From positions 1 through 55,054 of the IMG/VR virus record IMGVR_UViG_3300049454_000015: 55,054 nt of DNA, one strand, 5' to 3'. Positions 2,493 through 54,893 of the stretch are shown here, one piece after another. The notes under the pieces were generated by a model. The model ran no database searches, was not told the origin of the DNA, and saw nothing but the letters and a program-made list of their open reading frames with translations. Made by a program: the position numbers and the translations under genes. Position 1 is the stretch's first letter; every line of letters begins with the position of its first letter. The stretch comes from a virus (lineage: Duplodnaviria; Caudoviricetes).

Positions 2493-2554
2493 GCCAGGCG
2501 GGTGAAGGAATGCCCGTCGAACGCTAGCCAGACTCCGGACTGTTGTCAACAGTT
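2493..2554 (-). promoter_or_regulatory. conserved early promoter cassette (TTGACA-N17-TAGCGT, palindrome, CGCCTGGC box)
   Basis: minus strand AACTGTTGACAACAGT...TAGCGT...CCCGCCTGGCA then RBS. Confidence 0.8.
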
Positions 2555-2555
2555 C

Positions 2556-3746
2556 TTACGGGTGGTGTTTGGTGCGCTTCACCTCCCTGCCGATGACGGT
2601 CTGCTCCCAGCATGACAACACCTCGTCTCGATCGGATGCAGGCCAGTCCTCGGTTAGTGCCTCCACCCTGCCCTTGACGGCTTTCACCACATCCCAGACC
2701 AGCGGGCCGAGCAGTCGCGACAGACGCACGAGGTCGCAGATGTCGGCGGTTTTCTCGACCTCCGTCCACTGCTGATCGCCGAGGACCAGCGTCCCGTGTT
2801 CTTCCACGTACGCCCGCACGTCCGCGTCGACCGCCTTCACCGCCTTTTCCAGGAGTAGCCGCACCCCGTTGGCCTGGTCCCGCCACCCGATCCGGTCTTC
2901 CAGTTCCCCGCTGGCGAGTGCCCGGGCCAGCCGGGCGCCGTGGGTGGGGAGATCGGTGTAGGCCGGGCAGTCGTCCCGGACCACACACGAGGTGCAGCCG
3001 AGGTTGACCACCGGCAGTGCTTCATCGTCGCGGAGGATGGTGCGTGTTACAGCGACCGCCCAGGCGTGCCAGTCGTCGAGTTCGGCGTCGGTGTACCGCA
3101 CGGCCACGTCCCGCCATTTGGTGGCGTCCAGGTGGGTCCACACCACCGGCGTGCCGGCGTCGGGGAACGCCCGCTGCCAGTAGCGGCGCAGGATCCACGC
3201 CTGCCCCTTCAACTGGACGTCGCCGCGGATGTCGGCCAGCGACGGCGGGGCGCCGCGGGTTTTGAAGTCCACCGCGTGCAGGACGTTCGGCTCGTCCGGG
3301 TCCACCAGCGCCTTGTCGAGGATCGCCCGGTACCAGATCTGCCCGTGGTCCTCATCGTCGTACAGCGGCACCTGTAGGTCCATCTCGACGCCCACGGTGT
3401 GCATGACGTCCAGCGGCGAGGCCTCCCGAGCCAGGTAGGCGTCGAGGTCGCGGCGGGCCTCGACGAACAGGGCCGGGTCCATGTCGGCGGGGAACACCTG
3501 CGCCAGCGCCGCGTACGGGTCGATCTGCTGGGTCTCCGCGACTTCGAGCATCCGGTGAAACACCGTGCCGTAGCGCATCCGTTCCGATGGTTCGTCGACT
3601 ACCCCGTCGAGGTACCGGGCCCGGTACTTGCGTGGGCAGCCGCGGGGCTGTTCCTGCCCGGTGAGCCGGAATCCTTCCGCGCCGTACGTGCGGAGCCGGG
3701 TTGCCGACACGGTCGGGAACCCGGACTCCCCGGGGGGGATCTTCAC
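2556..3746 (-). CDS. PD-(D/E)XK exonuclease, Cas4/RecB-like
   Basis: CPRKY...GTVFH...E...ILD...DFKT...QL and C-terminal CTSC...C (split Fe-S cysteines). Confidence 0.8.
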   Translation of the reverse strand: MKIPPGESGFPTVSATRLRTYGAEGFRLTGQEQPRGCPRKYRARYLDGVVDEPSERMRYGTVFHRMLEVAETQQIDPYAALAQVFPADMDPALFVEARRDLDAYLAREASPLDVMHTVGVEMDLQVPLYDDEDHGQIWYRAILDKALVDPDEPNVLHAVDFKTRGAPPSLADIRGDVQLKGQAWILRRYWQRAFPDAGTPVVWTHLDATKWRDVAVRYTDAELDDWHAWAVAVTRTILRDDEALPVVNLGCTSCVVRDDCPAYTDLPTHGARLARALASGELEDRIGWRDQANGVRLLLEKAVKAVDADVRAYVEEHGTLVLGDQQWTEVEKTADICDLVRLSRLLGPLVWDVVKAVKGRVEALTEDWPASDRDEVLSCWEQTVIGREVKRTKHHP

Positions 3747-3988
3747 CGGTCACCCGTGGTGCATCGGTGGTCCAGGATCCAGTTGGCCAGCTGCGCCCGG
3801 TCCCACGCGATACCGCCGATAGCCCGGGCTCCGCAGTCGTCGCAGCGCAGTCCCCGCCACCGCAGGCGCATGCGGGACGAGCCAGCCACCAGCGGCTGCA
3901 CTACCCGGTAGATCTCCCCGACGCGCCGGGCCGCGGCCACCCGCTCCGCTGTTTCTTTGTCGTACTGCTCATCGTCCGGTTTGGTCAT
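3743..3988 (-). CDS. hypothetical protein with CxxC
   Basis: 81 aa, overlaps neighbouring genes at both ends. Confidence 0.55.
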   Translation of the reverse strand: MTKPDDEQYDKETAERVAAARRVGEIYRVVQPLVAGSSRMRLRWRGLRCDDCGARAIGGIAWDRAQLANWILDHRCTTGDR

Positions 3989-4245
3989 CCTGTCGCTCTC
4001 CCCTCATCGTCTGCGGCCAGCCGGCGGGCCCGCGCGTACCGGGCCCGCTGCGCCGCCGCCGCTGCCTGTTTCCTGGCCTCCCACGCGGCGGCCTGCGCCC
4101 GTTCTAGCGCTTCCATGTCGGCGACCAGGCGGGCCCGCTGCAGCTGCGCGGTGGGCCCGGACATGCACGCGCCCGGGTCCGGGCGCCGGACCGGCCGGAG
4201 CCGTTCCGCTTCCAGCGCCTGGACCCGGGCGGCGTGCTCATCCAC
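3985..4245 (-). CDS. hypothetical coiled-coil protein
   Basis: GTG start after GAGG; Ala/Arg-rich helix; alternative start at 4164. Confidence 0.45.
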   Translation of the reverse strand: MDEHAARVQALEAERLRPVRRPDPGACMSGPTAQLQRARLVADMEALERAQAAAWEARKQAAAAAQRARYARARRLAADDEGRATG

Positions 4246-4252
4246 GGTCGCC

Positions 4253-4627
4253 TCAGCCGCCCGCCGACCAGGGGTCCTCCGGGCCGGCTGGGCGGCGTTT
4301 CCGGGCGAGCACCGACACCGTGAGTGCTTCCACGTGCGTCTTGGCTTCGGTCTGCCCGTTCGGCATGAGCCGGCGCCGCTGCGACAGTTTCCCCAGCACG
4401 TGTACCCGGTCGCCCTTGGCCAGCCCGCCGCCGTCTTCGAGCTGCTCGACCTGCGTGCCGTAGGCGTGGCACCGCGCAAACGTGTTCACGGCGTCGTGGG
4501 TGCTGGTCTCCGGGTTCCATCTGGCGTCGGTCAACGCCAGCGTGAAGTCGAGGACCGGCATGCCGGCGGCGATGAACCGAACCGGGGCCACGTCGGAGAG
4601 CACCCCGGCCAGCTCGACCCGGTTCAC
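4253..4627 (-). CDS. ssb: single-stranded DNA-binding protein
   Basis: NRVELAG...P.RF...G.PV..F.LA...LAKGDRVHVLGKL OB-fold pattern; GTGA overlap. Confidence 0.8.
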   Translation of the reverse strand: MNRVELAGVLSDVAPVRFIAAGMPVLDFTLALTDARWNPETSTHDAVNTFARCHAYGTQVEQLEDGGGLAKGDRVHVLGKLSQRRRLMPNGQTEAKTHVEALTVSVLARKRRPAGPEDPWSAGG

Positions 4628-4788
4628 AGCTTCTGCCGGTCGAGTGTCTCTGCCCAGTCGAGCGTCCAGCGGACGATGACGTACAGGACAGCCGCCCAGA
4701 ACACCAAGCTCAGGAGAATCACGGCGGACAGCTTGACACGCATCCACATGGTTCTGCGTTTCCGTCGCTTGCCGGAGCCCTGCGCCAT
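4624..4788 (-). CDS. small membrane protein
   Basis: basic N-terminus plus one TM helix; TGATG overlap. Confidence 0.55.
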   Translation of the reverse strand: MAQGSGKRRKRRTMWMRVKLSAVILLSLVFWAAVLYVIVRWTLDWAETLDRQKL

Positions 4789-5027
4789 CACCGGGGCAGC
4801 AGCAGCAGGTACGCCGCGGTGGCCGCCACGGCGACCAGCAGCGCGGCGGCAACGGACACCGTCCGGTTGAACCTGCGCTGCCGGCGGCGTCGCCGGTCCA
4901 TCCGGGTGGTGGTCCGGAGCAGCTCGCACGCCGGCATGGCGTGCAACACCGGCCGGGGCGGGTGACCGGGGTCGTTATCGACCACGATCCCGATTACCGC
5001 GGTGCTGGTCACGTCTTCCTTGTCCAT
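4788..5027 (-). CDS. small membrane protein
   Basis: Arg run followed by a C-terminal TM helix; follows a CACCTGGC box. Confidence 0.6.
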   Translation of the reverse strand: MDKEDVTSTAVIGIVVDNDPGHPPRPVLHAMPACELLRTTTRMDRRRRRQRRFNRTVSVAAALLVAVAATAAYLLLLPR

Positions 5028-5050
5028 GGGGGTAGCCCTCTCGCCGTGCT

Positions 5051-5086
5051 GCCAGGTGGGTTGATGACGTTCTGTGTCTACAGTTT
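5051..5086 (-). promoter_or_regulatory. variant cassette (AAACTGTAGACA plus CCACCTGGC)
   Basis: one-mismatch copy of the AAACTGTTGACA motif, closer to the CACCTGGC box than usual. Confidence 0.55.
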
Positions 5087-5775: not shown

Positions 5776-6789
5776 TTACGTCCCCTCATCCTGCGAGCCC
5801 ATACCCGCATCGATTTTGCTGCTGGCCAGCAACTTACGGAAGTTGTTCAACATCAGCGTGATCTGACCTTCACTCAACTTTCCGTAGCTGATCTCGCCGG
5901 TCGCCTTGTGCACGGCGTCGCGGTTCCCGAGGGAGTCCGCCACGTACCGGGCCAGGCCTGCCCGGAATTCCTCCTCGCTGGATCCCTTTATCTGGCGAAG
6001 TTCTTCGAGCACGGTCAGCAATTCCTCGGTTGCCTCTTTGCGTCCCTTCGGTGCTGGCCGCGCGGGTCCTGGCTGCGCGGGTCCTGGCTGCGCGGGTCCT
6101 GGCTGCGCGGCATCCCCGATGGTGTCGGATGCCATGGCTTGCCGCAGGTGCTGCATCTCCTCAAGTGACGCCACGCCGGACCCGGGCAGGATCCCGAACC
6201 CCCACAGCCCGAGCGCGCGCCCCACCGCGCCTGTCTGCGCTTTCTCGAACGGGTTGGTTCGCCGGGCCCCCGACGCCTTGTCGTCCGGCACCCACACCTG
6301 CCCGGTACGGCACCCCAGCGCCGTCCAGCCACCATCGGGCCCTGCAGCCGGCGCGAAGATGCTGACCTGCTCCCGGTACACCAGCCGGCCGCCCAGCTCA
6401 ATGAACCCTTCCGTCTCGTCTGCCCCGCCGGCTGGCCCGACGTCGACTCGCCACCCGTTCTTCGCCTGCGCGGCTTCGAGCATCTTCACCCGGCCGGCCA
6501 CCGACACGTACAACGTCCAGGTCGGCACCTTCTCCTCAACCTCGACCACCCGGTCGCCGCTCGGCGACCGCCGGGGAACCATGACTTTCTCTGGGTTCGG
6601 CAACGGCTGCACGAAATCGGCGTAGTCGACCACCCGCACCCCCCCGAACTGGTCGGGCAGGGAGTCCAGGCGTTCGAGCACCAGGTCACGCGACGGCGGG
6701 TCGCTGTACCACTTCCATAGGCCGATGTCGGGCAGCTCGGCCACCGCGGGCTGCGGGCCGGCAGGCTCGGGGTTGGCGGCTGGGCTCAC
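5776..6789 (-). CDS. putative single-strand annealing protein (Rad52/Erf-like superfamily)
   Basis: YVSVAGRV...FEKAQTGAVGRALGLWGFG...VASLEEM pattern; lies near SSB and the exonuclease. Confidence 0.55.
   Translation of the reverse strand: MSPAANPEPAGPQPAVAELPDIGLWKWYSDPPSRDLVLERLDSLPDQFGGVRVVDYADFVQPLPNPEKVMVPRRSPSGDRVVEVEEKVPTWTLYVSVAGRVKMLEAAQAKNGWRVDVGPAGGADETEGFIELGGRLVYREQVSIFAPAAGPDGGWTALGCRTGQVWVPDDKASGARRTNPFEKAQTGAVGRALGLWGFGILPGSGVASLEEMQHLRQAMASDTIGDAAQPGPAQPGPAQPGPARPAPKGRKEATEELLTVLEELRQIKGSSEEEFRAGLARYVADSLGNRDAVHKATGEISYGKLSEGQITLMLNNFRKLLASSKIDAGMGSQDEGT
6061..6110. repeat. 15-bp tandem repeat x3.3 (AQPGP linker)
   Basis: cgcgggtcctggctg repeated in frame. Confidence 0.9.
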
Positions 6790-7226
6790 AGGGAAGCCTC
6801 GTCTGCCTTGCGCTGCAATGCCGTAGCGAGTATGTGGGCCTCCCTCGGGGACATCTCCCATCCGGGTCCGGCGTCGCTGCTGTGTACGGTGACGCTCCCC
6901 CGAGTCTCGTCAGCCTTCACGTTTATGATGTGCCCGGATCCGTCCAGCTTGACTATCAGTGTTCCCGTCCGTACGGCCGGTGTCTCGCAGTGGATCTGCT
7001 CAAAGTGAACCGCGGCGATCTCGCTCAGGTCGACGTATCCCAGGACCGGATCCGCCCCTTTCCGCTGCTCCCACTTCACCTCGCGCAGCTGACCGGATAT
7101 CGGCGCCGGCTGCATGCTGAAAGAGGTCACGTCCGCCCCTACCTGCTGACCGCTGCGCAACGTGATAACCACGCGGCTCTCGTCATCCTCAATGCTCTTG
7201 CCCATTTCGACGCTGTCTTCTGACAC
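6786..7226 (-). CDS. hypothetical protein
   Basis: 146 aa; GGAGGAG RBS directly after a CACCTGGC box (7241-7248). Confidence 0.7.
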   Translation of the reverse strand: MSEDSVEMGKSIEDDESRVVITLRSGQQVGADVTSFSMQPAPISGQLREVKWEQRKGADPVLGYVDLSEIAAVHFEQIHCETPAVRTGTLIVKLDGSGHIINVKADETRGSVTVHSSDAGPGWEMSPREAHILATALQRKADEASL

Positions 7227-7268
7227 GGTTCTTCTCCTCCGCCAGGTGTTTACTCTTCGCTGAATATC

Positions 7269-7592
7269 TTACCGGTCTGTCGGTTCCTCTTTCTGCTCGA
7301 TGTCATCTTCGATCGGTTCTGCTTTCTGTTGCCCGACGACGACTTTCCCCGCGTAGGTCAGCTCGTACTGACCTCTTTTACTTAGTGCGCGGAGCAGTCC
7401 CCGGGTTACGAGCTGTTCGACGATTCGGTGTATCACCCTGCGGTCGAGGAACATTTTTCTGGCTATCTCGGTCTGGGTCGCCCCGGCGAGGATTTCTTCC
7501 AGGACTTGTCTTTGTCGTCCGGTCATTCCCCTGGGAGATGTGCGGCCCTGGGTGTACCCGGCGTCTGGTTTTCCTCGCGGTCGTGGTGTCAT
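7269..7592 (-). CDS. winged-HTH DNA-binding protein
   Basis: MTGRQRQVLEEILAGATQTEIARKMFLDRRVIHRIVEQLVTRGLL...YELTYAGK; TAATG overlap. Confidence 0.7.
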   Translation of the reverse strand: MTPRPRGKPDAGYTQGRTSPRGMTGRQRQVLEEILAGATQTEIARKMFLDRRVIHRIVEQLVTRGLLRALSKRGQYELTYAGKVVVGQQKAEPIEDDIEQKEEPTDR

Positions 7593-8047
7593 TACGCCAG
7601 CCTCCGGATATTCTCGGCGCGGATGTAGTCGCGGAGCTGGATCGCTGCGGCGCAGCTCGGGCAGGTCAACACGAATGTTTTGTGCATGACCCGGTGCTTC
7701 TGCACGATCCTTTGCAGTGCCGCCATTGCCTGTTCCGATTGTGTTATAACCGCGATCGGTGGTCGTTCTGAGCGGTCGGGTAAGGCGACTATGCCCCGCG
7801 CGAAGCCTTCTATGGCGAGCCGCGTCCGGTTGTATGCCCCCAGTTTGGGGCCCATGTTGCGGATGTGGGTTTTCACGGTGTCGTCTGTCAGCCCGAGAAT
7901 CCTGCCGATGTCCGCGTTTCCGAAACCCGTGTAGCACAGGACCAGAATCACTTGGTATTCGCGTTGGGTTAGCCCGATGGCCTCCGCTACCGGCGGTATG
8001 CGGAGGGCGTCCGGGGACGGTGCCCAGTCCTGGCATTCTTCCGGCAC
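7592..8047 (-). CDS. LuxR-family HTH regulator with C-terminal CxxC
   Basis: LTQREYQVI...GFGNADIGRILGLTDDTVKTHIRNMGPKLGAYNRTRLA; start approximate. Confidence 0.8.
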   Translation of the reverse strand: MPEECQDWAPSPDALRIPPVAEAIGLTQREYQVILVLCYTGFGNADIGRILGLTDDTVKTHIRNMGPKLGAYNRTRLAIEGFARGIVALPDRSERPPIAVITQSEQAMAALQRIVQKHRVMHKTFVLTCPSCAAAIQLRDYIRAENIRRLA

Positions 8048-8088: not shown

Positions 8089-8376
8089 TCAGGTTCCGGG
8101 CGCCGGCTGGGTGACCTCGTCCTGGCAGCGCGGGCACACGAACACGATCACGTGACCGTCTGACCTGCAGTCGACCTTCCCGGACCAGCCGCACGGGCGT
8201 TCCGAGTCGCCGGCCAAACAGATCTGGCACGCCTGCGGCTCCAGCTCGACGAACCGGGACCACGCCCCCACCGCGTACGCGGTGGCGCGCTCGTTTGCCA
8301 GCGGACAGTCCGGCCAGTACCCGGTGTCCGCTGTGCACTCGACGGAAGCGGGCCCCTCGTACGTGGTGGCTGTCAT
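8089..8376 (-). CDS. Cys-rich hypothetical protein
   Basis: first gene after a cassette; two CxxC. Confidence 0.65.
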   Translation of the reverse strand: MTATTYEGPASVECTADTGYWPDCPLANERATAYAVGAWSRFVELEPQACQICLAGDSERPCGWSGKVDCRSDGHVIVFVCPRCQDEVTQPAPGT

Positions 8377-8392: not shown

Positions 8393-8452
8393 GCCAGGTG
8401 GTTCGTGTCGTGCACCATCCTCCTAATCCCCACCCGTGTTGTCAACACTTTT
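8393..8452 (-). promoter_or_regulatory. conserved promoter cassette
   Basis: AAAAGTGTTGACAACAC, N17 to GAGGAT, then AACCACCTGGCAA and RBS. Confidence 0.75.
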
Positions 8453-9401: not shown

Positions 9402-9838
9402 AGTGCGATCCTGGCGCAGCCGTCCGCGATGGCCTGGGCCTGCTCGCGGGCGTGGGCGCGGATCCGTTGCACGTCGGGGGTGTCTCCGGCAAGCAGGGCG
9501 AGTCGTAGTGCTGCTAGGTCGTGGGCGTAGGCGGCCACGGCGGACTGGAGCGGGCCGGTCAGGTCAACGGCTGCGGCGTACAGGATCCGCGCGGCGTCGG
9601 TCAGTTCGTCGGGCTGGTCGGTGATCAGCTGGTCTGCGGTGTACGGGGCGACGGTGACCTGTACTTGCATGACGTCGCGGCACGCCATCCATGCGGTCAG
9701 CTGGTCCGGGACCGGGACCATAGCGGCTTCAGCCCGGGGGGTGTCACGGCTGTAGGCGGCCATCCCGCCGAACCCGACCGCGGCGGCGACCAGGGCGGCG
9801 GCTGCGGCGGCTGAGACGCCCGGCCGCGGCCGGGTCAC
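9398..9838 (-). CDS. membrane-anchored or secreted helical protein
   Basis: N-terminal hydrophobic segment, two Cys; GTGA overlap. Confidence 0.6.
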   Translation of the reverse strand: MTRPRPGVSAAAAAALVAAAVGFGGMAAYSRDTPRAEAAMVPVPDQLTAWMACRDVMQVQVTVAPYTADQLITDQPDELTDAARILYAAAVDLTGPLQSAVAAYAHDLAALRLALLAGDTPDVQRIRAHAREQAQAIADGCARIAL

Positions 9839-10209
9839 CGCCGCTCCCACAGCTGGCCGCCGCCGGGCGCGGCGGTCAGGGCTGCTTCCATGACGGTGAC
9901 GTGGTCCGCGCGGAGCCGGCGTGCCTCCATCTGGTCGTGGTCGGTGAAGGTCCGGCCGCACGCGCACTGCGCGTGCCACAGCCCGTCCCAGTGGAACGCC
10001 GGGGCGTCCGCTCCGTGGTTGGGTGCGGCCTGGACGGCTTCCGCTGCGTCCCGCAGCCACCGGGCCAGCTCGCCTTTGTCGTAGGACCAGACCCTGCCGA
10101 CGTAGGGGATCTGCACCTCCCACGCGGTGCGTTCCGTCGCGTCCGCCCAGATCGGGAAGACCTCAGCCGGGCACGGCCGGTCGGCGGTGATTTCGAACTC
10201 GTTGCTCAT
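9835..10209 (-). CDS. hypothetical protein (CxC...H Zn-finger-like)
   Basis: GAGGGAG RBS after cassette. Confidence 0.65.
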   Translation of the reverse strand: MSNEFEITADRPCPAEVFPIWADATERTAWEVQIPYVGRVWSYDKGELARWLRDAAEAVQAAPNHGADAPAFHWDGLWHAQCACGRTFTDHDQMEARRLRADHVTVMEAALTAAPGGGQLWERR

Positions 10210-10226: not shown

Positions 10227-10287
10227 GCCAGGTGGGGTGAACTGGAGGCTTCAGTGTGTACGGCACACACACCCGTGTCAACAGTTT
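10227..10287 (-). promoter_or_regulatory. conserved promoter cassette
   Basis: AAACTGTTGACA-N17-CACACT...CCCACCTGGCA then RBS. Confidence 0.75.
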
Positions 10288-10296
10288 CCGTCCCCG

Positions 10297-10339
10297 GCTG
10301 GACTCAACAGGTTGTTGAGTCCAGCGCGGGTTGAGGGTT
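10297..10339. repeat. 43-bp palindromic element, copy 1
   Basis: GCTGGACTCAACA-GGT-TGTTGAGTCCAGC-GCGGGTTGAGGGTT, identical to 40784-40826. Confidence 0.9.
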
Positions 10340-11000: not shown

Positions 11001-11486
11001 TCAGTGCGAGACGAGGCGGTCGGGCGGCGTGGGGACCGGTTCGTCTTCGTCGTCCCCGCCGTGGCCGTGGCAGCAGAACGGGCACCACGGCTGCAGCCGG
11101 TCGTGTTCCGCGGCGGTGAAGATTTCCAGGGCCATGACCGCGTACCCGGTGCTGTTGAGTAGGTTCCCGATCGGGTTGTCCGCGTCCATGAACGCGGACG
11201 CCACGAGGCACACGAAAGCGATCCCGAGTAACCGCATCGCATGGTGGGCGGCGTGTAGCAGCATCCGGCGTCGGGCCGCGGTCTCCGGACCGTTCAGGGA
11301 CATCGCATCGACACACCGGCTGCAGAGGCGCCCGCCATGGCGGGCGACGCCGACGAGCAGGACCGTGACGACGGTGAGTTTCAGGCCGATCTCTGCAACG
11401 TCGGTGAGCACGCTGGTGGGGATCCATGTCAGTAAGCCAATGACCAGGAACAGTGGGACGGCGCGGTGGATCAAATACTTGATCAT
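11001..11486 (-). CDS. 4-TM Zn-binding-like membrane protein, paralog A
   Basis: four hydrophobic segments; HGGRLCSRC and HDRLQPWCPFCC; AAGGA RBS after AACCTGGC box. Confidence 0.7.
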   Translation of the reverse strand: MIKYLIHRAVPLFLVIGLLTWIPTSVLTDVAEIGLKLTVVTVLLVGVARHGGRLCSRCVDAMSLNGPETAARRRMLLHAAHHAMRLLGIAFVCLVASAFMDADNPIGNLLNSTGYAVMALEIFTAAEHDRLQPWCPFCCHGHGGDDEDEPVPTPPDRLVSH

Positions 11487-12804: not shown

Positions 12805-12865
12805 AAACTGTTGACACGGGCTCGGTTCGGCGTAGGCTTCCCAGCGTTTACCACAACCACCTGGC
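12805..12865 (+). promoter_or_regulatory. conserved promoter cassette (plus strand)
   Basis: AAACTGTTGACA-N16-TAGGCT...AACCACCTGGC then RBS. Confidence 0.8.
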
Positions 12866-15290: not shown

Positions 15291-15464
15291 CTCGCCCCGC
15301 CACCACCCCACCCCGGCGGGGCGAGAGCTCACCCCCGGCCCGACTCCCCACGAAGGGCCGGGGGTGAGCACCGGTCCGAACAGTTCAGGGCCCGGACATC
15401 CCATGGGGTCGTCCGGGCCCTGACCTTCTGGAATCCCACCTGGCAAGGCATAGACCACCAGAAG
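15291..15464. other. array of four hairpins at the junction of convergent operons (terminator or ncRNA)
   Basis: stems 15291-15325, 15327-15369, 15385-15423, 15425-15464. Confidence 0.7.
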
Positions 15465-17380: not shown

Positions 17381-17409
17381 GGAAGGCCGGCCCGCGATGG
17401 GAACCGGCT

Positions 17410-30523: not shown

Positions 30524-30525
30524 CG

Positions 30526-47906: not shown

Positions 47907-48197
47907 TCAGTCTGCCTCCGGCCAGGTCATCGTGTAGCCGACCTGCGCGACCAACGAGACCGCGGCACCTATAGTCACGCTGGTTTCGTTCACCTCGTAA
48001 GTGCTCTTGATGATTCCCGAGATGACCAAGGCGACCTGGCCGAGCTGCTCACTGGTGAGATCCGGGAACGAATCCATCAGCCCGTCGCGCACCGTGGCGA
48101 TGTGCACCTGCAGAGTCGTCCTGTTGCGCGCCCAGGGGGCGCGCGCCATCTCGGTGCGCACCTGGTCCAGGTAGGCGCTCGCTTGGGGGCTGATCAT
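47907..48197 (-). CDS. helical hypothetical protein, paralog A
   Basis: SPQASAYLDQ...FPDLTSEQLGQVA; CACCTGGC box (48213-48220) plus AAGGA RBS. Confidence 0.65.
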   Translation of the reverse strand: MISPQASAYLDQVRTEMARAPWARNRTTLQVHIATVRDGLMDSFPDLTSEQLGQVALVISGIIKSTYEVNETSVTIGAAVSLVAQVGYTMTWPEAD

Positions 48198-48335
48198 CGG
48201 TGATTCCTTTCGGCCAGGTGGGTGCGGGAGAGGCCGGCCCCCTCTCCACTGGTACTGGAGAGGGAACCGGCCCCGGTCATTCTGCGTCACACCCGCGTGT
48301 GTTGTGCGGACACTCGTGGGATGGATTGGTGCTGG

Positions 48336-49514
48336 TTACAGCGCGGGCGTCACAAGAAGCAGCGGCCGGTTCGCTCCGGGCGCAACGATGATCTTCCCGT
48401 TGCGGGTGACCAGCCAGTTACGGACCTGGTTGGGCTGCCACGACGGGACGGCCTGCAGGACCCGGGCAGCGGCCCCCGCGACGTGCGGGGCAGCCATGGA
48501 GGTGCCGGACAGCGACGCGTATGCGGCGTCGCTGGTCCGCCAGCTCGACAGGATCCCGACGCCGGGGGCGTACAGGTCCACGATCACCCCGAAGTTCGAG
48601 AAGCCGGCGCGGAGGTCACCCGCGTCGGTCGCACCGACCGTGATCCCGGACAGCACATGCGCCGGTGAGAACTCCGCCGCGTCCTTGTTGCTGTTGCCCG
48701 CGGCCAGGACGTAGGTCACGCCTGATTCGATGGAGGCGTGCACGGCCAGGTCCAGGGCGTTCGTCGCCTGGCCGCACTCGCATCCGAGGCTCATGTTCGC
48801 CACTGCCGGTCGGGCGGTGTTCCCGGTCACCCAGTTCACCCCGGAGATCACCCCGGCCAGCGAACCGGAGCCGGCGCAGTCGAGCACCTTCACGGCCTTG
48901 AGCCTCACGCCCTTGGCCACCCCGACCAGCCGGCCGCCGATGGTGCCGGCGACGTGCGTGCCGTGGCCGTTGCAGTCGACGTTCCCGCCACCCGTACCGG
49001 GAGCGGTGAAACCCCAGCTCGCGCGGCCACCGAACTCCCGGTGAGTCGTCCGAATCCCAGTGTCGATCACGTAGGCGACCACACCGGCGCCGGTCCGGGT
49101 GTACCCGTACTTGTGATCCAGCGGCAACAGCTTCTGATCGATGCGGTCCAACCCCCACGACGGCGGGTTCGGCTGCGTCGTCGCGGTGGCATTCACCACC
49201 ACGTTCGGCTGCACGAACTGCACCGCAGCGGACCGGGCAAGCTTCTTGGCCTGCCCGGCAGAGATCCGGACCTCTGCACCATTGATCGCGGACCGCCACC
49301 GGACAGCCGCCTTGAAGCCAGCCGGCAACTCCCGGCCCGGCTTGAGCACCACGATGTACGAACCGGGTACCACCTTCGCGGCCCCGACATCAGTCCGCAG
49401 CGTTCCTACAGGCTCGGCATGCGCAGTGCCCATACCCGCGCCGGCTACCGCCAGGACAACAGCGACCAGCGCGGCTCCCGCGACTCGCAGAGCCGCGCAC
49501 CAACGTTCGTTCAT
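48336..49514 (-). CDS. secreted S8A subtilisin-like protease (aqualysin/proteinase K type) with I9 propeptide
   Basis: signal peptide, YIVVLK propeptide, WGLDRIDQ, catalytic triad IDTG / HGTHVAG / GTSMAAPHVAG. Confidence 0.93.
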   Translation of the reverse strand: MNERWCAALRVAGAALVAVVLAVAGAGMGTAHAEPVGTLRTDVGAAKVVPGSYIVVLKPGRELPAGFKAAVRWRSAINGAEVRISAGQAKKLARSAAVQFVQPNVVVNATATTQPNPPSWGLDRIDQKLLPLDHKYGYTRTGAGVVAYVIDTGIRTTHREFGGRASWGFTAPGTGGGNVDCNGHGTHVAGTIGGRLVGVAKGVRLKAVKVLDCAGSGSLAGVISGVNWVTGNTARPAVANMSLGCECGQATNALDLAVHASIESGVTYVLAAGNSNKDAAEFSPAHVLSGITVGATDAGDLRAGFSNFGVIVDLYAPGVGILSSWRTSDAAYASLSGTSMAAPHVAGAAARVLQAVPSWQPNQVRNWLVTRNGKIIVAPGANRPLLLVTPAL

Positions 49515-49677: not shown

Positions 49678-50268
49678 TCAGTACCTGGGATCGGCGGCGT
49701 CGCCGGTTTCCGGCGTAGGCTCGCGGGGATCCTCGGCCACCTCGTAGAGCTGATCAACGACCCGACCCAGCAGCTCGTTGAGCGCCAGCGCGCCAGACCG
49801 GGAGAACCGCAGCACCGCCCCGTAGACGAACCCCTGCCCGCCGGCATCGGTGTAGCTGTTCAGGGGAAGCGCAACCTCCGCCGCGTGGTAACGCATCGGC
49901 GGGAACTCCTCGTCAGCTACCCGCCGGCCACGGTCGTGATCTTCGTAGACCTGCGCGATCGTCTCGTCCGCGTGCTCTTCGAAAACCGCGATCGGCTCGA
50001 CGTGCCTGGTTCCGGCGTCGAAGCTGATCGCGGGCGGGTAGCGTTCCGTCTGGCTCACGGTCACGGTGACCGGCGGCAGCTGGGCACCGCGGTAGGCGGC
50101 GCGGTACTGCCGGGCTGCGGCGAGCGCAGCAAACAGCTGCGGGTTGTAGGGCTGCTCGCCACCCGCTCCCTGTTCGGCGAACTCGATCAGCTCGTCTGCG
50201 CTCATGTAGCCCAGCTCGACGGCCGGATGCGCGGCGTCAGGGGTCGGGTCAGTGGTTGGTTCGACCAT
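49678..50268 (-). CDS. hypothetical protein
   Basis: 196 aa; GGGAG RBS after cassette. Confidence 0.7.
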   Translation of the reverse strand: MVEPTTDPTPDAAHPAVELGYMSADELIEFAEQGAGGEQPYNPQLFAALAAARQYRAAYRGAQLPPVTVTVSQTERYPPAISFDAGTRHVEPIAVFEEHADETIAQVYEDHDRGRRVADEEFPPMRYHAAEVALPLNSYTDAGGQGFVYGAVLRFSRSGALALNELLGRVVDQLYEVAEDPREPTPETGDAADPRY

Positions 50269-50284: not shown

Positions 50285-50335
50285 GCCAGGTGCGGGTTGG
50301 ATACGCGGAGACGCTACCACATAGTCAACAGTTTT
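50285..50335 (-). promoter_or_regulatory. cassette with shortened spacer
   Basis: AAAACTGTTGACT-N6-TAGCGT...GCACCTGGCAA. Confidence 0.6.
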
Positions 50336-51553: not shown

Positions 51554-52072
51554 TTAGTCGCCCTGGCCGCCGCATTGTGAGCACCGCGGCGGGGCCGGCT
51601 GGACCCAGAAGCCGCCGCCGCTCGTTCCGCCCGGCAGGTGCCCCGGTGATCCATCCGCGTGGAACCAGGCGCTGTAGGTGCTGGCCGGCTCGGTGTGCCC
51701 GGCCGGGATGTGCTTACTGCCGTTGTCGCACATCGCGTACACGATCGGCTTCTCGCAGTACACGCAGGTCCCGGCGTCGGCCTGGACCATCGACTTGAAG
51801 GTGTGCCCCACGTGCATCCACAGGTCACGGCCGTGGACCCGCAGGATGGTGACCTCGTGCAGCTTCACCCACTGGTACGTCTCAGCCGGTACCGAGTCGT
51901 GAGGCCCGTGGTCCGCCGAAACCTCGGAGAACCAGAACACGAGTTCCCAGCCGGGGCCCTCCGGCCGGCGGTCGCTTAGCGGTGCGGTCACCGACTGCGC
52001 GACGATGCGGCCGGTGCGCTTGCCATCGGTGACGGTGGCGCCGTTCAGGCGGGCGATCACGCGTGCGGTCAT
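51554..52072 (-). CDS. hypothetical protein with C-terminal CxxC motifs
   Basis: GGAG RBS after cassette. Confidence 0.65.
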   Translation of the reverse strand: MTARVIARLNGATVTDGKRTGRIVAQSVTAPLSDRRPEGPGWELVFWFSEVSADHGPHDSVPAETYQWVKLHEVTILRVHGRDLWMHVGHTFKSMVQADAGTCVYCEKPIVYAMCDNGSKHIPAGHTEPASTYSAWFHADGSPGHLPGGTSGGGFWVQPAPPRCSQCGGQGD

Positions 52073-52087: not shown

Positions 52088-52148
52088 GCCAGGCGGGTTT
52101 CGATGGGTAGGACGCTACCCGCCGTCACCATCCTTGTCAACAGTTTTT
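52088..52148 (-). promoter_or_regulatory. conserved promoter cassette
   Basis: AAAAACTGTTGACA-N17-TAGCGT...CCCGCCTGGCAA then RBS. Confidence 0.8.
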
Positions 52149-52567
52149 GGGTACGCCTCGTGTTGCGCAATCTGCTTGGCCGCCAAGTCGAACGCTTCCG
52201 GCACATACCCCGACAGGTAGGCCAGGGCTCTCCTGCAGTCCTCGTTTCCCCAGCCGTCCAGCAGATTTAGCCGACGCTCGTGCTCCAGCACATGCGGCGC
52301 GCCGCACGCGCTGGCCGGGCGCTCCGCCCGCTCGCGCACGAACACGCCGCTGCCCTGCCTGGTGACCACCAGTCCTTCCGCTTGAAGATCGCGGATCGCC
52401 CGCTGCACCGTGGCGCGGGCCACGCCGTAGTTCCTTGCGAGAGCCGGCGTCGACGGCAGCTTGTCCCCGGGCGCGAACTTCCTGGTACGGATCGCTGCCC
52501 GGAGCGCGCTCGACACCTGCGCGTACGGCGGACGTGGGTCGTCTGGGTCAAGGCTCACGGTGTCCAT
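52115..52567 (-). CDS. GntR-family wHTH regulator with atypical short C-terminus
   Basis: PPYAQV...PGDKLPS...LA..YGVARATVQRAI..L..EGLVVTRQGSGVFV. Confidence 0.85.
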   Translation of the reverse strand: MDTVSLDPDDPRPPYAQVSSALRAAIRTRKFAPGDKLPSTPALARNYGVARATVQRAIRDLQAEGLVVTRQGSGVFVRERAERPASACGAPHVLEHERRLNLLDGWGNEDCRRALAYLSGYVPEAFDLAAKQIAQHEAYPKTVDKDGDGG

Positions 52568-52586
52568 TGCTTCCGGTAGCCGGGGG

Positions 52587-53128: not shown

Positions 53129-53130
53129 GG

Positions 53131-53430: not shown

Positions 53431-54033
53431 TCAGGCCTCGCGCGCTGTGACGGTGCAGGTCCAGTTGTCGTTCTCGTCCTGCTCCACCTCGCCTCGGATC
53501 AGCCCCTGCCGCAGGCAGTACGCGTCGATGTCCTCGACGGTGAAGTCTCCGGCCACGGTCAGCCTGCGCTGTGACCCATCGGGGAACTCCGGCGGGCATA
53601 CGGTGCTGACGTGTATCGACGGGGCCTGCTCGTACACGGTCGAGTGCGCCTTCTGGGTCGGGCGTGGGTGCCGGGCCGGGCAGCTCGGGTCGATGCACGG
53701 GTCAGCGACGCACTCAGCGTCCGGGCAACCACCCTCGCGGTGCTCACGGAACGAATGACCGCACCAGTGGAGGGCCGCCGCGTCCGCGTCAGGCGTCAGG
53801 CCTTGAGCGGTGAGCGTCTCGAACTGTTCGCGCGAGATCACCACCACGTCAGCGTTCGCGGTTTCGTGGTCGCTTCGGTCCATCAAGTCGAGGATGGAGC
53901 CGACCAATATTCGGACGTTGCGGGTCTGGGCGGGGTTCGTGCCGTGCTGCATCCTGAGCAGAAGCTCCCGCAGTTTCATCCAACGGACGTCGCGCGGGTC
54001 CATCTGCGTTACGGCCGGCTGTTCGGTGGCCAT
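53431..54033 (-). CDS. hypothetical protein with central Cys/His cluster
   Basis: AGGGG RBS after cassette. Confidence 0.7.
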   Translation of the reverse strand: MATEQPAVTQMDPRDVRWMKLRELLLRMQHGTNPAQTRNVRILVGSILDLMDRSDHETANADVVVISREQFETLTAQGLTPDADAAALHWCGHSFREHREGGCPDAECVADPCIDPSCPARHPRPTQKAHSTVYEQAPSIHVSTVCPPEFPDGSQRRLTVAGDFTVEDIDAYCLRQGLIRGEVEQDENDNWTCTVTAREA

Positions 54034-54049
54034 TGTCGTTTTCCCCTTT

Positions 54050-54112
54050 GCCAGGTGGTTTTCGGTACAGGTGGAACGCTACGCCGGACCCGCAATCTTG
54101 TCAACAGTTTTT
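54050..54112 (-). promoter_or_regulatory. conserved promoter cassette
   Basis: AAAAACTGTTGACA-N17-TAGCGT-TCCACCTG...AACCACCTGGCAA. Confidence 0.85.
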
Positions 54113-54322
54113 GACTGGCGAGTGACCGGCACACTGGTCGTTGACGCTGCCCGTCTTGACCAGGACCCAACCCGTGTCCCGCTTGAACTCGATCACCTCG
54201 TCGCAGTACCCGCACAGGCGGCGCGAGCAGGCACTGCAGTACGCCTGCGCGCCCACCACCCACCAGTTGTGAAACCCAAGCTTGCAGCACATCAGGCTGA
54301 ACATCCGGTCAAGGGGCATCAC
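54101..54322 (-). CDS. small Cys-rich protein
   Basis: CKLGFHNW...CSAC...CGYC; stop lies inside the downstream TTGACA. Confidence 0.55.
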   Translation of the reverse strand: MMPLDRMFSLMCCKLGFHNWWVVGAQAYCSACSRRLCGYCDEVIEFKRDTGWVLVKTGSVNDQCAGHSPVKNC

Positions 54323-54448
54323 GATCCGCTGTCACCTCGGGGGTTGTCTGGGCCGGTCCGGATGCGCCAGCCGATACCGCGGCTGGCGGCCGCGAATTCG
54401 TCGTACTCGTCTTCCATTGCTACAGGGCTCCCCTGCGCTTGGCGCCAG

Positions 54449-54479
54449 CGGGGGGCCGGCCCCGTATTCCGGCCCCCCG
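54449..54479 (-). terminator. GC hairpin
   Basis: CGGGGGGCCGG/CCGGCCCCCCG just after the stop codon. Confidence 0.6.
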
Positions 54480-54486
54480 TGTTCGG

Positions 54487-54816
54487 TTACCCGCAGGTGC
54501 AGTGCAGGGGGTTCGCCAGCCAGTAGGCCAGGATCCCGGCGTGGCGCTGCTCGCGCTCCGCGGCGTTCGCCAGTAGGGTCCGCTGCTTCCGCTCGCTCAG
54601 GCTCTGCGCCCGGTTTCGGTCCCGGGCCACCTCGTCCACGTACTGCCCCATCATGTACCGGCGCGCGTAGGCCGGGCAGTTGAAGTGGAAGCTGTAGAGC
54701 CGGCCGTCGGTGGCGCAGCGGAACTCCCAGGTCCGGGAACAGTCGAACTGGATCTCCTCGACGTTCGAGGAACACTCGGGGAGCTGGTCTACTGCGGTCG
54801 CCGTGGTGGTGGTCAT
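54487..54816 (-). CDS. hypothetical protein
   Basis: GGAGG RBS after cassette. Confidence 0.7.
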   Translation of the reverse strand: MTTTTATAVDQLPECSSNVEEIQFDCSRTWEFRCATDGRLYSFHFNCPAYARRYMMGQYVDEVARDRNRAQSLSERKQRTLLANAAEREQRHAGILAYWLANPLHCTCG

Positions 54817-54834
54817 CTCTGCAGTCCTCCGTTT

Positions 54835-54893
54835 GCCAGGTGGTTCGACAAGGAAGACGCTACGCCCGACCCACCCTGTTGTCAACAGTTTTT
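54835..54893 (-). promoter_or_regulatory. conserved promoter cassette with palindrome
   Basis: AAAAACTGTTGACAACAG, N17 to TAGCGT, then AACCACCTGGCAA and GGAGG. Confidence 0.85.

Follow-up and report, generated by a model that had tools for sequence, protein, structure and literature searches.

The window analysed here, a stretch of 55,054 nucleotides (68% GC), comes from an uncultured, probably lytic actinophage of a soil metagenome. Four DNA-binding proteins are encoded, namely, HTH_3 (801-1169), GerE (7592-8047), HTH_58 (14513-14725) and GntR (52115-52567), whereas no RNA-binding Pfam domain, RegA-like or other, was detected among the 58 phage proteins scanned. A single 'RNase E' PHROG label (43843-44313) falls next to the terminase on a product with just a weak HTH match in Pfam, and no ribonuclease gene was recognised in the phage. 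An integrase of neither family was found, so nothing points to a lysogenic state that would need maintaining.

A short sequence box recurs directly ahead of translation starts in this genome. Our pattern search recovered on the coding strand all 12 start-linked copies described in an earlier note on this DNA, along with the two extra copies at 1252-1259 (-) and 15437-15444 (+) (Table 1). Within a composite leader element that joins A(a/c)C-CACCTGGC-A(a) to a Shine-Dalgarno (SD) tract, the box forms the constant 5' half, with CCTGGC identical at 12 of 12 sites.

Table 1. Box copies and associated features in the window (distances in nt; "end" refers to the end of the -10 hexamer, upstream of the box)
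Feature	Position	Strand	Context
Box CACCTGGC (extended GAACCACCTGGCAAA)	54835..54842	-	18 before ATG of 54487-54816; TTGACA-17-TAGCGT, end 14 upstream
Box AAACCACCTGGCAAA	54050..54057	-	16 before ATG of 53431-54033; TTGACA-17-TAGCGT, end 18 upstream
Box, CGCC variant AACCCGCCTGGCAAC	52088..52095	-	15 before ATG of 51554-52072; TTGACA-17-TAGCGT, end 16 upstream
Box CCCGCACCTGGCAAC	50285..50292	-	16 before ATG of 49678-50268; TAGCGT end 18 upstream; irregular promoter, TTGACT just 6 before TAGCGT
Box CACCCACCTGGCCGA	48213..48220	-	15 before ATG of 47907-48197; no promoter-like hexamers; hairpin precedes
Box, AACC variant CCCCAACCTGGCGAA	11501..11508	-	14 before ATG of 11001-11486; TAAGAT end 15 upstream, no -35 match
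Box ACCCCACCTGGCAGA	10227..10234	-	17 before ATG of 9835-10209; AAACTGTTGACA at 10281, no clean TAnnnT
Box GAACCACCTGGCAAC	8393..8400	-	16 before ATG of 8089-8376; GTGTTGACAACAC at 8448-8436
Box TAAACACCTGGCGGA	7241..7248	-	abuts GGAGGAG; 14 before GTG of 6786-7226; TAAGAT end 17 upstream
Box AACCCACCTGGCAGC	5051..5058	-	23 before ATG of 4788-5027; AAACTGTAGACA 17 upstream, TAAACT end 23 upstream
Box, CGCC variant CACCCGCCTGGCATG	2493..2500	-	22 before ATG of 2210-2470; TTGACA-17-TAGCGT, end 20 upstream
Box CAACCACCTGGCGCA	12858..12865	+	24 before ATG of 12890-13153, first gene of the sole + strand operon; TTGACA-16-TAGGCT, end 19 upstream
Weak extra copy ACCTCACCTGGCTGA	1252..1259	-	82 before called GTG of HTH gene 801-1169; matrix score 9.3
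Orphan copy / anti-box	15434..15449	-	+ strand reads TCCCACCTGGCAAGGC, no gene behind; - strand reads GCCUUGCCAGGUGGGA; matrix score 14.7
Hairpin closed by CUUCUGG/CCAGAAG	15425..15464	-	anti-box in upper part; 175-nt - strand fold, z -3.0
Terminator-like strong inverted repeat CAGGGCCCGGAC...GTCCGGGCCCTG	15386..15422	.	between convergent late (-) and + operons; 11 from anti-box
Second terminator-like inverted repeat CACCCCCGGCCC...GGGCCGGGGGTG	15330..15366	.	
Promoter repeat family D2 (AAAAACTGTTGACAA-N-TAGCGT)	54857..54894	-	also 54076-54113, 52112-52149, 2521-2558
Promoter-like TTGACA-16-TAGGCT	12811..12838	+	+ operon

A search of both strands with the pattern [AC][AG]CCTGGC gives 30 matches, whereas 100 dinucleotide-preserving shuffles average 13.9 +/- 4.0 and none reached 30 (largest count, 26). 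The chance level of a couple per strand given in the earlier note was thus too low, about 14 being expected on both strands for this degenerate 8-mer. Nevertheless, the proposed locking to ribosome-binding sites (RBSs) holds: a same-strand start codon follows 14-24 nt after the end of 12 of the 30 matches, where the match rate in the rest of the genome predicts 0.46 (Poisson P ~1e-13). The gene set behind this count consists of our own rough calls (88 genes), with the starts at 2470, 8376 and 12890 set by hand at the coordinates of the earlier note; with the 9 automatic box starts alone, the enrichment remains extreme. The ORFs behind all 12 boxes have GC3 values typical of coding sequence (0.76-0.94). 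When scored with a 15-nt weight matrix derived from them, the 12 start-linked sites take the top ranks (at least 14.2) with one intruder, the orphan at 15437. Every start-linked box is in sense orientation, including the single copy of the + strand operon, whereas the bare 8-mer has 14 more matches scattered inside genes on both strands, so that the original claim of invariable sense orientation applies to the extended motif only. All 12 lie in the early region, and none precedes a start at 15.5-44.3 kb, where the structural and lysis genes reside. ATG is the start codon of 11 of the 12 box genes, compared with 48 of all 88.

The boxes mostly follow TTGACA-17-TAGCGT promoters, four of which form a repeat family with 71-100% identity across 38 nt. 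Between the -10 hexamer and the box, neither sequence nor length (14-23 nt) is conserved, and the -35 element is less well kept than the box, with exact TTGACA near 7 of the 12 sites. By contrast, an SD-like purine tract starts 0-5 nt after the box at 10 of 12 sites. Among the three copies previously thought to lack a promoter, the one at 48213 indeed does and follows a hairpin, but those at 7241 and 11501 have a -10-like TAAGAT 17 and 15 nt upstream, respectively. The promoter positions predict early leaders of ~32-44 nt, which fold no more than shuffled sequences (z -0.9 to +2.0); the box itself has an unpaired probability of 0.38-0.78 and is not predicted to form a hairpin. Some leaders, here and in the contigs discussed below, share an additional (G)ATCGAAAA 5' of the box, and a palindrome, CTGTTGACAACAG, overlies the -35 element at 3 promoters, with compensating changes in one.

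Extended pairing with rRNA, one of the options raised originally, was rejected: the 16S rRNA of three actinobacteria ends in ...CCUCCUUUCU, leaving no tail 5' of the SD, so the box lies beyond the 16S 3' end, and GCCAGGUGG is absent from the rRNAs of all three. Within the genomes searched, the box is not a host signal. Of 401 sampled Actinomycetes genomes, 44 contain the sequence CCTGGCAARGGAG, with a maximum of 3 per genome. The density of CACCTGGC-N0-6-GGAG is 91 per Mb in the phage, whereas four actinobacterial genomes have ~6-7 per Mb, a value close to the reversed control in 3 of them and ~3 times as high as it in the fourth (G001).

The box recurs, fused to the SD, in two otherwise unrelated viral contigs, L270 (15.9 kb) and L271 (6.7 kb), which carry (A)TCCACCTGGCAA(A)GGAG behind AAACTCTTGACAAC-N-TAGGTT. 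The SD begins 0-4 nt after the box at the 5 tabulated sites of these contigs. The copy at 11245 in L270 has a hairpin upstream and neither -10 nor -35, yet abuts the SD. A single protein (RusA-like, 45%) is common to the window and these contigs, and at the DNA level L270 and L271 have only the 67-bp promoter-leader in common. A cousin motif, caC-GGCGAAAGG, is abundant in the early regions of the Arthrobacter phages Kitkat, in which a 5' hairpin sits at the corresponding leader position, and DanielleIgnace. String searches with the box itself returned unrelated primers only, consistent with the earlier remark that the sequence is not a described motif; elements of this kind are described, however, namely, the start-associated sequences (SAS) known from mycobacteriophages of Cluster K and from Microbacterium phages of Cluster EF. 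The Cluster K SAS show a like ATG bias (80/93 vs ~55%).

The orphan copy is the sole antisense one, an anti-box in the noncoding DNA that follows the final late gene (15550-15900, -). The duplex of its 16-mer with the 12 box leaders is computed at -21.6 to -29.5 kcal/mol, compared with -16.6 +/- 3.1 for 76 other start regions, with a G-U wobble expected at the three CGCC variants. In local shuffles, 0.54 matrix matches scoring 14.7 or more turn up per genome, both strands counted, which, with a noncoding share of 13%, gives a chance rate in noncoding DNA of roughly 0.07. Hence, the antisense target suggested in the earlier note now has a concrete candidate, although the anti-box of the window alone is statistically weak, only marginally beyond chance, and its hairpin context was noticed post hoc.

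Reverse copies are present in some of the other phages as well. Kitkat carries GGCGAAAG 17 times forward and once in reverse (TCCTTTCGCCGG), the latter in a 494-nt gap with a strong hairpin 6 nt downstream, within a block of ~200 nt that is identical in KellEzio, whereas the sequence on either side differs. In DanielleIgnace, 16 copies run forward and 2 in reverse; each of the reverse copies adjoins or lies within a hairpin, one of them in a genuine intergenic gap and the other inside annotated gene 33, an annotation that we consider doubtful. According to the predicted folds, the Kitkat copy and the DanielleIgnace copy at 29310 pair in cis with the RBS motif belonging to the gene that follows immediately; these two may act on single genes, as RBS locks, rather than as global regulators. 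In mycobacteriophage Adephagia, with 16 forward SAS and 1 reverse, the reverse core CCUCCUAUCC forms the apical loop of a ~19 bp stem in a 430-nt gap; a single reversed SAS was reported in all four K1 phages and left uninterpreted (Pope et al. 2011). AnnaSerena (Cluster EF), with 10 forward SAS, has no reverse copy at up to 2 mismatches, and its sole reverse 10-mer core (1 mismatch) falls within a polymerase gene. Five more Cluster K genomes contain 1, 0, 1, 1 and 1 reverse core matches, no more than the reversed control, and only that of Anaya has an Adephagia-like coordinate. The antisense-copy pattern is not general across phages.

We tentatively favor the reading that the box is an RNA-level tag through which a whole class of messages is placed under translational control in trans; it may well, without being assured, be the right one. 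An RNA-level element at translation starts, as originally proposed minus rRNA pairing, is the best supported class because of the strict sense orientation, the 0-5 nt link to the SD and the promoter-less sites after hairpins. Residing in short, unstructured 5' leaders of the first genes of ~12 early transcription units, the box would be read on the mRNA as a common, phage-specific mark on the RBSs of one temporal class, such that one trans-acting phage factor could control the translation of all tagged messages together, most plausibly for early-gene shut-off. The sequence offers a single candidate for this factor, the anti-box: a putative - strand RNA, GCCUUGCCAGGUGGGA (15449->15434), might pair with the box and on across the AA into the first G residues of the SD, thereby blocking 30S binding. 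That this RNA is the regulator is conceivable, if hardly probable; the identical box in phages with almost no common genes argues against an antisense pair, which would be free to drift. An RNA-binding protein in this role is rather unlikely, with no candidate among the scanned proteins.

An unlikely alternative places the signal in DNA: an asymmetric operator at ~+5 to +20, bound by a phage DNA-binding protein, would block RNA polymerase in an orientation-dependent manner. The site is indeed asymmetric and 12-15 bp long, always points the same way with respect to transcription, is found in short intergenic stretches, mostly 14-20 bp past the -10 hexamer, and could be served by any of the four encoded proteins; the stoperators of Cluster A mycobacteriophages have exactly such properties (PMC9262239). 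Because the orphan at 15437 is also in sense orientation to the adjacent + operon, at the end of which it lies, it fits this reading too, as a roadblock that would stop read-through into the late genes. However, the position of the box follows the SD more strictly than the promoter, box and SD being contiguous in L270 and L271, and copies occur at promoter-less sites after hairpins. Moreover, stoperators are spread over the genome, whereas the box is confined to early genes, no lysogeny is evident that would have to be maintained, and the palindrome over the -35 element is a better operator candidate.

It is doubtful that the box acts as a constitutive translational enhancer, read directly by a platform protein or S1 of the host 30S subunit, with no phage regulator, so that early messages gain fast, strong initiation. 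Its fusion to the SD, with the intervening AA(A) extending the SD duplex as far as the UUU in the 16S tail, the unstructured leaders and the ATG preference are compatible with this role, and the identical box in nearly unrelated phages, together with the related Arthrobacter phage motif, suggests a reader that is itself conserved, for instance the host ribosome. Yet the late structural genes, with the greatest need for protein, lack the box, which is also infrequent in the sampled actinobacterial genomes; rRNA pairing explains nothing past the 16S 3' end, and the reverse copies in hairpins are unaccounted for.

It is quite improbable that the box has no function of its own and merely travels in a promoter-leader-RBS cassette that duplication and recombination would have carried to several early genes and phages, retained because the whole cassette works or because conserved junctions aid module exchange. 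The promoter repeat family, the 67-bp cassette of L270 and L271 and the additional leader sequence point in that direction, but the invariance of CCTGGC next to an unconserved stretch and a poorer -35, and its presence without any promoter, do not. Least probable is an RNA processing or stability signal, at or near which a host or phage ribonuclease would cut, or where a protein would shield the 5' end, setting the lifetime of early messages: a linear, single-stranded motif near every predicted early 5' end, promoter-less copies after hairpins like processing sites between phage genes, and the Kitkat leader hairpin would suit it, against which stand the failure to recognise a ribonuclease gene and a sequence devoid of any mark of a cleavage site.

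The remaining copy in the window, the low-scoring one at 1252, is possibly a chance occurrence.

The motif [AC][AG]CCTGGC (the box) matches the window 30 times, against 13.9 ± 4.0 in shuffled sequence, and 12 of these matches, three of them judged against starts set by hand at positions proposed in the earlier note, end 14–24 nt 5′ of a start codon on the same strand, where 0.46 would be expected. The check thus bears out the positional enrichment at starts claimed in that note, and its coordinates for the start-linked boxes and for two extra copies proved correct against the sequence. All 12 ORFs behind the boxes have coding-type composition. Aligned on the box, the 12 sites yield the consensus A(a/c)C-CACCTGGC-A(a), in which CCTGGC is invariant, and a weight matrix built from them sets them apart from the remaining genome, the only other scores of at least 13 being at +15437 (14.7), +41580 (14.1) and −47691 (13.3, in coding sequence). 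Every start-linked box is in sense orientation and in the early region, with none at starts between 15.5 and 44.3 kb; ATG is the start codon of 11 of the 12 genes behind boxes, compared with 48 of 88 genes overall, and the intergenic gaps holding the sites measure 42–337 nt in our own gene calls. Two readings of parts of the motif were discarded: CCTGG as a restriction or methylation target, given that CCWGG and its extensions occur at Markov-expected counts, and TGGCA as a sigma-54 element, given the wrong spacing. Sigma-54 is not known from Actinobacteria.

The window is linear, 55,054 bp long and 100% complete by CheckV, with a GC content of 64–71% and the majority of its genes on the − strand. 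PHROG and Pfam matches place a PD-(D/E)XK exonuclease, an SSB, a RusA-like resolvase, an S8 protease and three DNA-binding proteins in the early block. Six-frame searches of the whole record detected no tyrosine or large serine integrase domain, so that the phage is probably lytic. Its best nucleotide match is Streptomyces phage Dagobah (66% across the capsid region); megablast of the window (7 kb and 22 kb) against 50,697 phage records and tblastn with the protein at 53431–54033 gave no match. The closest terminases in bacterial genomes, at 57–62% amino acid identity, come from Prauserella, Actinomadura, Lentzea and Umezawaea, all of them actinobacterial, which points to some actinobacterium as the host. 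The window has no tRNA or tmRNA, and the idea of a tRNA or attP-like remnant close to 15.45 kb was dropped because no tRNA lies there. The S8 subtilase-family protease (48336–49514, −; Pfam E = 4e-41) is an early-region gene unusual in a phage, and its leader (GATCGAAAGG) is similar to the box leaders but has no box.

Coordinates of genome blocks, selected genes and boxes in the window and in two viral contigs with the same box
Feature	Coordinates	Strand	Remark
Late block	~44.3 kb down to 15.55 kb	−	PHROG and Pfam matches
Terminase	42467–43846	−	late block
Endolysins	16904–18264	−	late block
Putative portal and capsid	between endolysins and terminase	−	our own calls
Early block	12.5 kb to 1 and 55 kb to 44.5 kb	−	PHROG and Pfam matches
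Sole + strand operon	12890 to ~15423	+	includes HTH_58 protein
Start-linked boxes, contig L270	15854, 12183, 11245, 9690	−	15.9 kb, 64.7% GC
Box, contig L271	5093		6.7 kb, 63% GC; plus CAC-less copy aaaTCCTGGCAAGGAG

An (A)AACTGTTGACA-type −35 element is located 17–50 nt upstream of nine of the 12 box sites, and five sites have a canonical TTGACA-16/17-TAG(C/G)(G/C)T, with the −10 ending 14–20 nt 5′ of the box; a promoter scan of the window returned no match because it demanded a TATAAT-like −10. Transcription generally starts ~7 nt downstream of the −10, and if this applies here, the box would begin at about +7 to +14 of leaders 32–44 nt long. Among the copies that had been described as promoter-less, two on the − strand have TAAGAT 15 and 17 nt upstream, and only the site at 48213 (−) truly shows nothing promoter-like, being preceded by a hairpin. 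An SD-like purine tract begins 0–5 nt 3′ of the box in 10 of the 12 sites and 8–10 nt in the other two, so that the position of the box follows the ribosome site more closely than the promoter. No RNA structure is common to the box leaders, which fold no better than shuffled sequences (z −0.9 to +2.0); in the predicted ensemble, the box is about half unpaired.

A reading at the RNA level is favored by the sense orientation of every start-linked copy, the link to the SD, the presence of copies without a promoter and the lack of structure in the leaders. Judged from these sequence features, the box may well be an RNA-level tag read by a trans-acting phage factor, which is the interpretation that we tentatively prefer. 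A DNA operator of the stoperator type is distinctly unlikely. As described in the available portion of PMC9262239, the stoperators of Cluster A phages resemble the box in being many asymmetric 13–14 bp sites that occupy short intergenic regions and face one way relative to transcription, a rule of orientation that the box follows; by contrast, they are DNA sites of a prophage repressor, distributed genome-wide and not tied to the RBS, whereas the box sites are confined to early leaders beside the SD. The operator interpretation is further weakened by the contiguity of the box with the SD and by the lack of lysogeny functions: stoperators go with a temperate phage and its immunity repressor, and no integrase domain was found in the six-frame search of the whole record. 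Moreover, there is a better candidate operator, a 13-bp palindrome over the −35 of three early promoters on the − strand, namely, CTGTTGACAACAG at 54888–54876 and 2552–2540, and GTGTTGACAACAC at 8448–8436, the latter with matching changes in both arms. This palindrome, distinct from the box, resembles an operator bound by a protein dimer. The −35 of Arthrobacter phage DanielleIgnace (AACTATTGACAAC) is flanked by inverted repeats, the sequence of which varies from copy to copy.

A constitutive enhancer of expression is quite improbable. The extended pairing with rRNA envisaged in the earlier note failed the 16S check: the 16S rRNAs of three actinobacteria end in ...GGAUCACCUCCUUUCU, the box falls beyond this end, and only the AA(A) 3′ of the box can pair with the 16S tail (UUU), lengthening the SD helix. 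GCCAGGUGG is absent from the rRNAs of these three actinobacteria; the best complement of the box there is the 7-nt CAGGUGG, in an internal helix and at chance level. The pattern CACCTGGC-N0-6-GGAG occurs five times in the phage (91 per Mb) compared with 6–7 per Mb in four actinobacterial genomes, which are carriers of related prophage terminases; the counts are near the reversed control in three of these genomes and ~3 times the control in one (G001). In a sample of 401 Actinomycetes genomes, CCTGGCAARGGAG is present in 44, with at most three copies per genome. Restriction to early genes, together with rarity in the bacterial genomes searched, favors a phage factor that controls this class specifically over a general enhancer. 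The occurrence of an identical box in very different phages favors the enhancer, or a conserved reader, and thereby counts against a phage factor.

These other phages were found through the box itself. At 80 viral loci encoding related terminases (47–64% amino acid identity) and 17 such loci in bacterial genomes, there are isolated matches only and no RBS-linked sets, which implies that the box is not a trait of the structural-module lineage. A search with the canonical promoter plus box returned 12 viral matches, including two true relatives, L270 and L271, and a second, looser pattern recovered both again along with one further site. In these contigs, the box is contiguous with the SD at every site (CCTGGCAA(A)GGAG), and three of the sites are preceded by AAACTCTTGACAAC-N16-TAGG(T/A)T. 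The window has one protein in common with them, the RusA-like one (45%), and the sole common part of L270 and L271 is a 67-bp promoter-leader; thus, the tag is kept where genes are not. The possibility that the box is a passenger of a mobile cassette is very improbable: despite four box promoters forming one repeat family, the stretch from the −10 to the box lacks sequence conservation, so that the box is not merely carried along by a recent duplication. A processing or stability signal can hardly be credited.

Single queries with the protein at 5776–6789 and with the exonuclease detected no relatives among viral contigs, and a search with a three-sequence exonuclease alignment recovered only Kitkat itself and one DanielleIgnace-like fragment. 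The pattern ACTGTTGACA-N25-55-CACCTGGC matched 27 viral loci and at least 117 metagenome loci, all of them single matches; on inspection, all the viral loci and the listed metagenome loci of at least 60% GC turned out to be unrelated.

The exonuclease links the window to the Arthrobacter phages Kitkat and KellEzio (Cluster AT) and DanielleIgnace, at 40–42% amino acid identity, as part of a recombination module of four common proteins (exonuclease at ~40%, SSB and two more). The early units of these phages, like those of the window, consist of a sigma-70-like promoter, a short leader, a motif and then the ATG. The leader motif, as defined here, is (c)aC-GGCGAAAGG(A/T). In Kitkat, the arrangement is CCTTGACGG..TAG(T/G/A)CT, a 5′ hairpin, (c)aC(C)GGCGAAAGGA and ATG, at no fewer than 10 sites, and in DanielleIgnace, it is AACTATTGACAAC..TAGACT, an A-rich leader, caCGGCGAAAGGTAA and ATG, at no fewer than nine, one of which reads CCCACTGGCGAAAGG. 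GGCGAAAG occurs in forward and reverse orientation at ratios of 17:1 in Kitkat and 16:2 in DanielleIgnace. The motif core, ..C(C)(T)GGC(G/A)AA(A)GG.., overlaps the window box; the SD side (GGCGAAAGG) is conserved and the CAC side loose in the Arthrobacter phages, whereas in the window, CACCTGGC is invariant and the SD side loose. Homology of the two motifs is plausible from this comparison. The Cluster AT paper (Klyczek et al. 2017, PMC5513430) does not mention the leader motif, the words "promoter," "motif" and "intergenic" occurring 0 times each, and literature text matches listed for CACCTGGCAA, CCACCTGGC and GGCGAAAGGA are of the primer type, with none on phages.

The box also resembles the start-associated sequence (SAS), reported along with the extended SAS (ESAS) in Cluster K mycobacteriophages (Pope et al. 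2011, PMC3203893) and Cluster EF Microbacterium phages (Jacobs-Sera et al. 2020, PMC7302621). As far as the available portions of these papers go, both are asymmetric ~13-nt motifs present in 10–19 copies per genome, in one orientation and at non-structural genes only; both are linked to starts with a strong ATG preference, are conserved beyond the needs of rRNA pairing and lie behind larger intergenic gaps with putative promoters (for the SAS, the ESAS; PMC11373665); the SAS is rare in host genomes, and the box was infrequent in the actinobacterial genomes sampled. By contrast, the SAS consensus is GGGATAGGAGCCC in Cluster K and GGGAAAGGACCCC in Cluster EF compared with CCACCTGGCA for the box, and the 12-site consensus, A(a/c)CCACCTGGCA(a), does not come within two deviations of either 13-bp sequence. 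Furthermore, SAS occupy the RBS position, containing the SD (AGGAG) and ending 3–7 (3–9) bp before the start, whereas the box lies 0–10 nt 5′ of the SD, from which a variable spacer separates it, and ends 14–24 nt before the start; even in L270 and L271, where box and SD are contiguous, the SD is not inside the box. The 17-bp inverted-repeat ESAS, as described in the same portions, is missing from the window. Given that it departs from the SAS in both consensus and RBS occupancy, the box is best considered a variant of the SAS kind and not a member.

Clusters EC, EG and EI of Microbacterium phages have unnamed repeated intergenic motifs, of which Quhwah (EC) carries 12 copies, 22–30 bp before starts, and Hyperion (EG) 10 copies, at 14–21 bp (PMC7302621). 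Compared by description only, from the available portion of that paper, these motifs are like the box in occurring in about a dozen copies in the early or non-structural regions of lytic actinophages, within the same class of distances to the start; the EG motif has short inverted repeats, whereas the box has none. Papers from 2024 and 2025 call the role of the SAS "not known" or "ill-defined" (PMC11373665, PMC12699233), and their available portions do not link the SAS to antisense RNA.

What might read such a tag is suggested by an orphan copy of the box at 15437 on the + strand (TCCCACCTGGCAAGGC), which has no gene behind it and lies outside both terminator-like hairpins that close the + operon (15330–15366 and 15386–15422). 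Its − strand complement, the anti-box, is situated 100 nt past the final late gene, whose stop is at 15550; it occupies the upper portion of a predicted hairpin that CUUCUGG/CCAGAAG closes (15464–15425; z −3.0), with 11 nt between its 3′ end and a terminator-like stem. Read as RNA, the anti-box would be perfectly complementary to the box together with the AA and the two initial Gs of the SD. With the 12 box leaders, the 16-mer forms duplexes of −21.6 to −29.5 kcal/mol, compared with −16.6 ± 3.1 for the other 76 start regions, a result that follows from how the anti-box was found and is no independent proof; the 16-mer was used instead of a 52-nt anti-box RNA, the duplex energies of which are uninformative because everything pairs in GC-rich RNA. 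Local shuffles produce 0.54 matches of the anti-box score per genome, or an estimated ~0.07 for the noncoding 13%, and taken alone, the statistical weight of the anti-box is small. A second antisense match, at +41580, was rejected, its duplex energies not being specific to box leaders and its position falling inside a probable 47-codon ORF. This unannotated ORF (41545–41688, −), recognized by eye, has the SD GGGAAGG and an ATG, would encode a very basic protein and holds an antisense CGCC-variant copy of the box, CCCGCCTGGCA, at 41578–41588 (+).

Judging by predicted folds, reversed copies in an RNA-hairpin context occur in four tag-bearing lineages. Kitkat has a single reversed copy (TCCTTTCGCCGG, 12 nt), placed 6 nt 5′ of a 17-bp hairpin within a noncoding gap of 494 nt. 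A noncoding block of ~200 nt between the late and early genes (Kitkat 30399–30665), which contains the reversed motif, the 17-bp hairpin and the RBS belonging to the following gene, is 100% identical in KellEzio, with diverging flanks, and has a very stable fold (z −6.9); this block, unmentioned in PMC5513430, is a candidate regulatory RNA. DanielleIgnace has one reversed copy 17 nt 5′ of a canonical A-tract/U-tract terminator and another in an intergenic gap, where it tops a long hairpin. In the minimum-energy folds of Kitkat and of DanielleIgnace at 29310, the reversed copy is paired, in cis, to the motif belonging to the gene that follows, so that these copies could be single-gene RBS locks. 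A TAGACT resembling a promoter element, a reversed copy of the leader motif and a canonical terminator hairpin all overlap annotated gene 33 of DanielleIgnace (29116–29349), the annotation of which may be wrong; the sequence also suggests that gene 34 starts later than annotated, from GGCGAAAG at 29391.

The K1 mycobacteriophages, too, have one reversed SAS copy, according to the available portion of their description. In Adephagia (Cluster K1), which has 16 forward SAS, it lies within 58590–58740, in the gap of 430 nt that separates genes 92 and 93, where its core, CCUCCUAUCC, forms the apical loop of a ~19-bp stem (z −5.8) directly following a terminator hairpin. Reversed 10-mer cores number 1, 0, 1, 1 and 1 in ZoeJ, Pixie, Kratio, Anaya and Unicorn, with controls at 0–2, and by comparison of coordinates among these five genomes, only that of Anaya is placed like the Adephagia one. 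AnnaSerena (Cluster EF) has 10 forward SAS and no reversed one; its single reverse match to the 10-mer core (one mismatch) falls within a polymerase gene.

Class-wide control of early messages and antisense RNAs directed at the RBS are familiar from T4 RegA and RegB, the c4 RNA of P1 and P7, the CI RNA of P4 and the sar RNA of P22, and the anti-SD in the icaR 3′UTR of S. aureus is an antisense element acting at the ribosome site. In such systems, one protein or small RNA prevents initiation on several messages by recognizing a sequence at their SD or next to it, and the c4 and CI RNAs have loops complementary to repeated targets. The anti-box is similar to the latter type, being a complementary 16-mer in noncoding DNA, located in the top of one predicted hairpin and 11 nt 5′ of another that is terminator-like, a likeness in sequence that could be due to chance. 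Rfam 15 families, c4 included, had no match at gathering score on either strand of the window. Within the RNA-level tag interpretation, an anti-box RNA as the trans-acting factor is a possibility, if a doubtful one, and an RNA-binding protein in this role is unlikely. RegA-type systems encode a RegA-like repressor; Pfam detected no RegA-like or other RNA-binding domain in the 58 early, regulatory and small proteins scanned outside the structural region at 17–41 kb.

More generally, the start-associated leader tags of actinophages, that is, the box, the GGCGAAAGG motif and the K1 SAS, might be targets of phage-encoded antisense RNA, a proposal that we consider quite doubtful. Each genome would keep 1–2 reversed copies of its own tag in a noncoding gap, in the top of a hairpin or just 5′ of a terminator, and the copy in the window would be displayed at the 3′ end of the late operon. 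The antisense RNA would pair with the tag and the SD on at least 12 or so early messages, resulting in a phage-specific, class-wide translational switch, either early shut-off in lytic phages or silencing in lysogens. If true, this would explain why SAS are conserved past the RBS, why the motifs are group-specific and why they mark a single temporal class, and would give a purpose to the lone SAS in "opposite orientation" noted in 2011. The window adds a third, differently built representative of the SAS kind, with the tag beside the SD and not over it, and the tag persists in phages with almost nothing else in common. Kitkat/KellEzio and Adephagia, two of the lineages, are open to cultivation and engineering, on Arthrobacter and M. 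smegmatis, respectively. The antisense mechanism, if true, would amount to a general temporal control of translation in actinophages and provide a compact orthogonal regulator for high-GC hosts; if false, the box is still a well-defined regulatory signal for annotating early transcription units in uncultured actinophages.

An exact 43-nt repeat is present at 10291–10339 and 40778–40826 (89–100% identity over 37–49 nt) and consists of a perfect hairpin, GCTGGACTCAACA-GGT-TGTTGAGTCCAGC, with a tail; the first copy lies immediately 5′ of the 10281 early promoter on the − strand, and the second is close to where the portal-like gene begins. The repeat could serve as a terminator common to both loci or as a joint for recombination. 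The structural gene at 29426–30523 contains five tandem copies with a period of 63–66 nt (29502–29816), and the gene at 5776–6789 contains four 15-nt tandem units, GGTCCTGGCTGCGCG, at 6050–6109.
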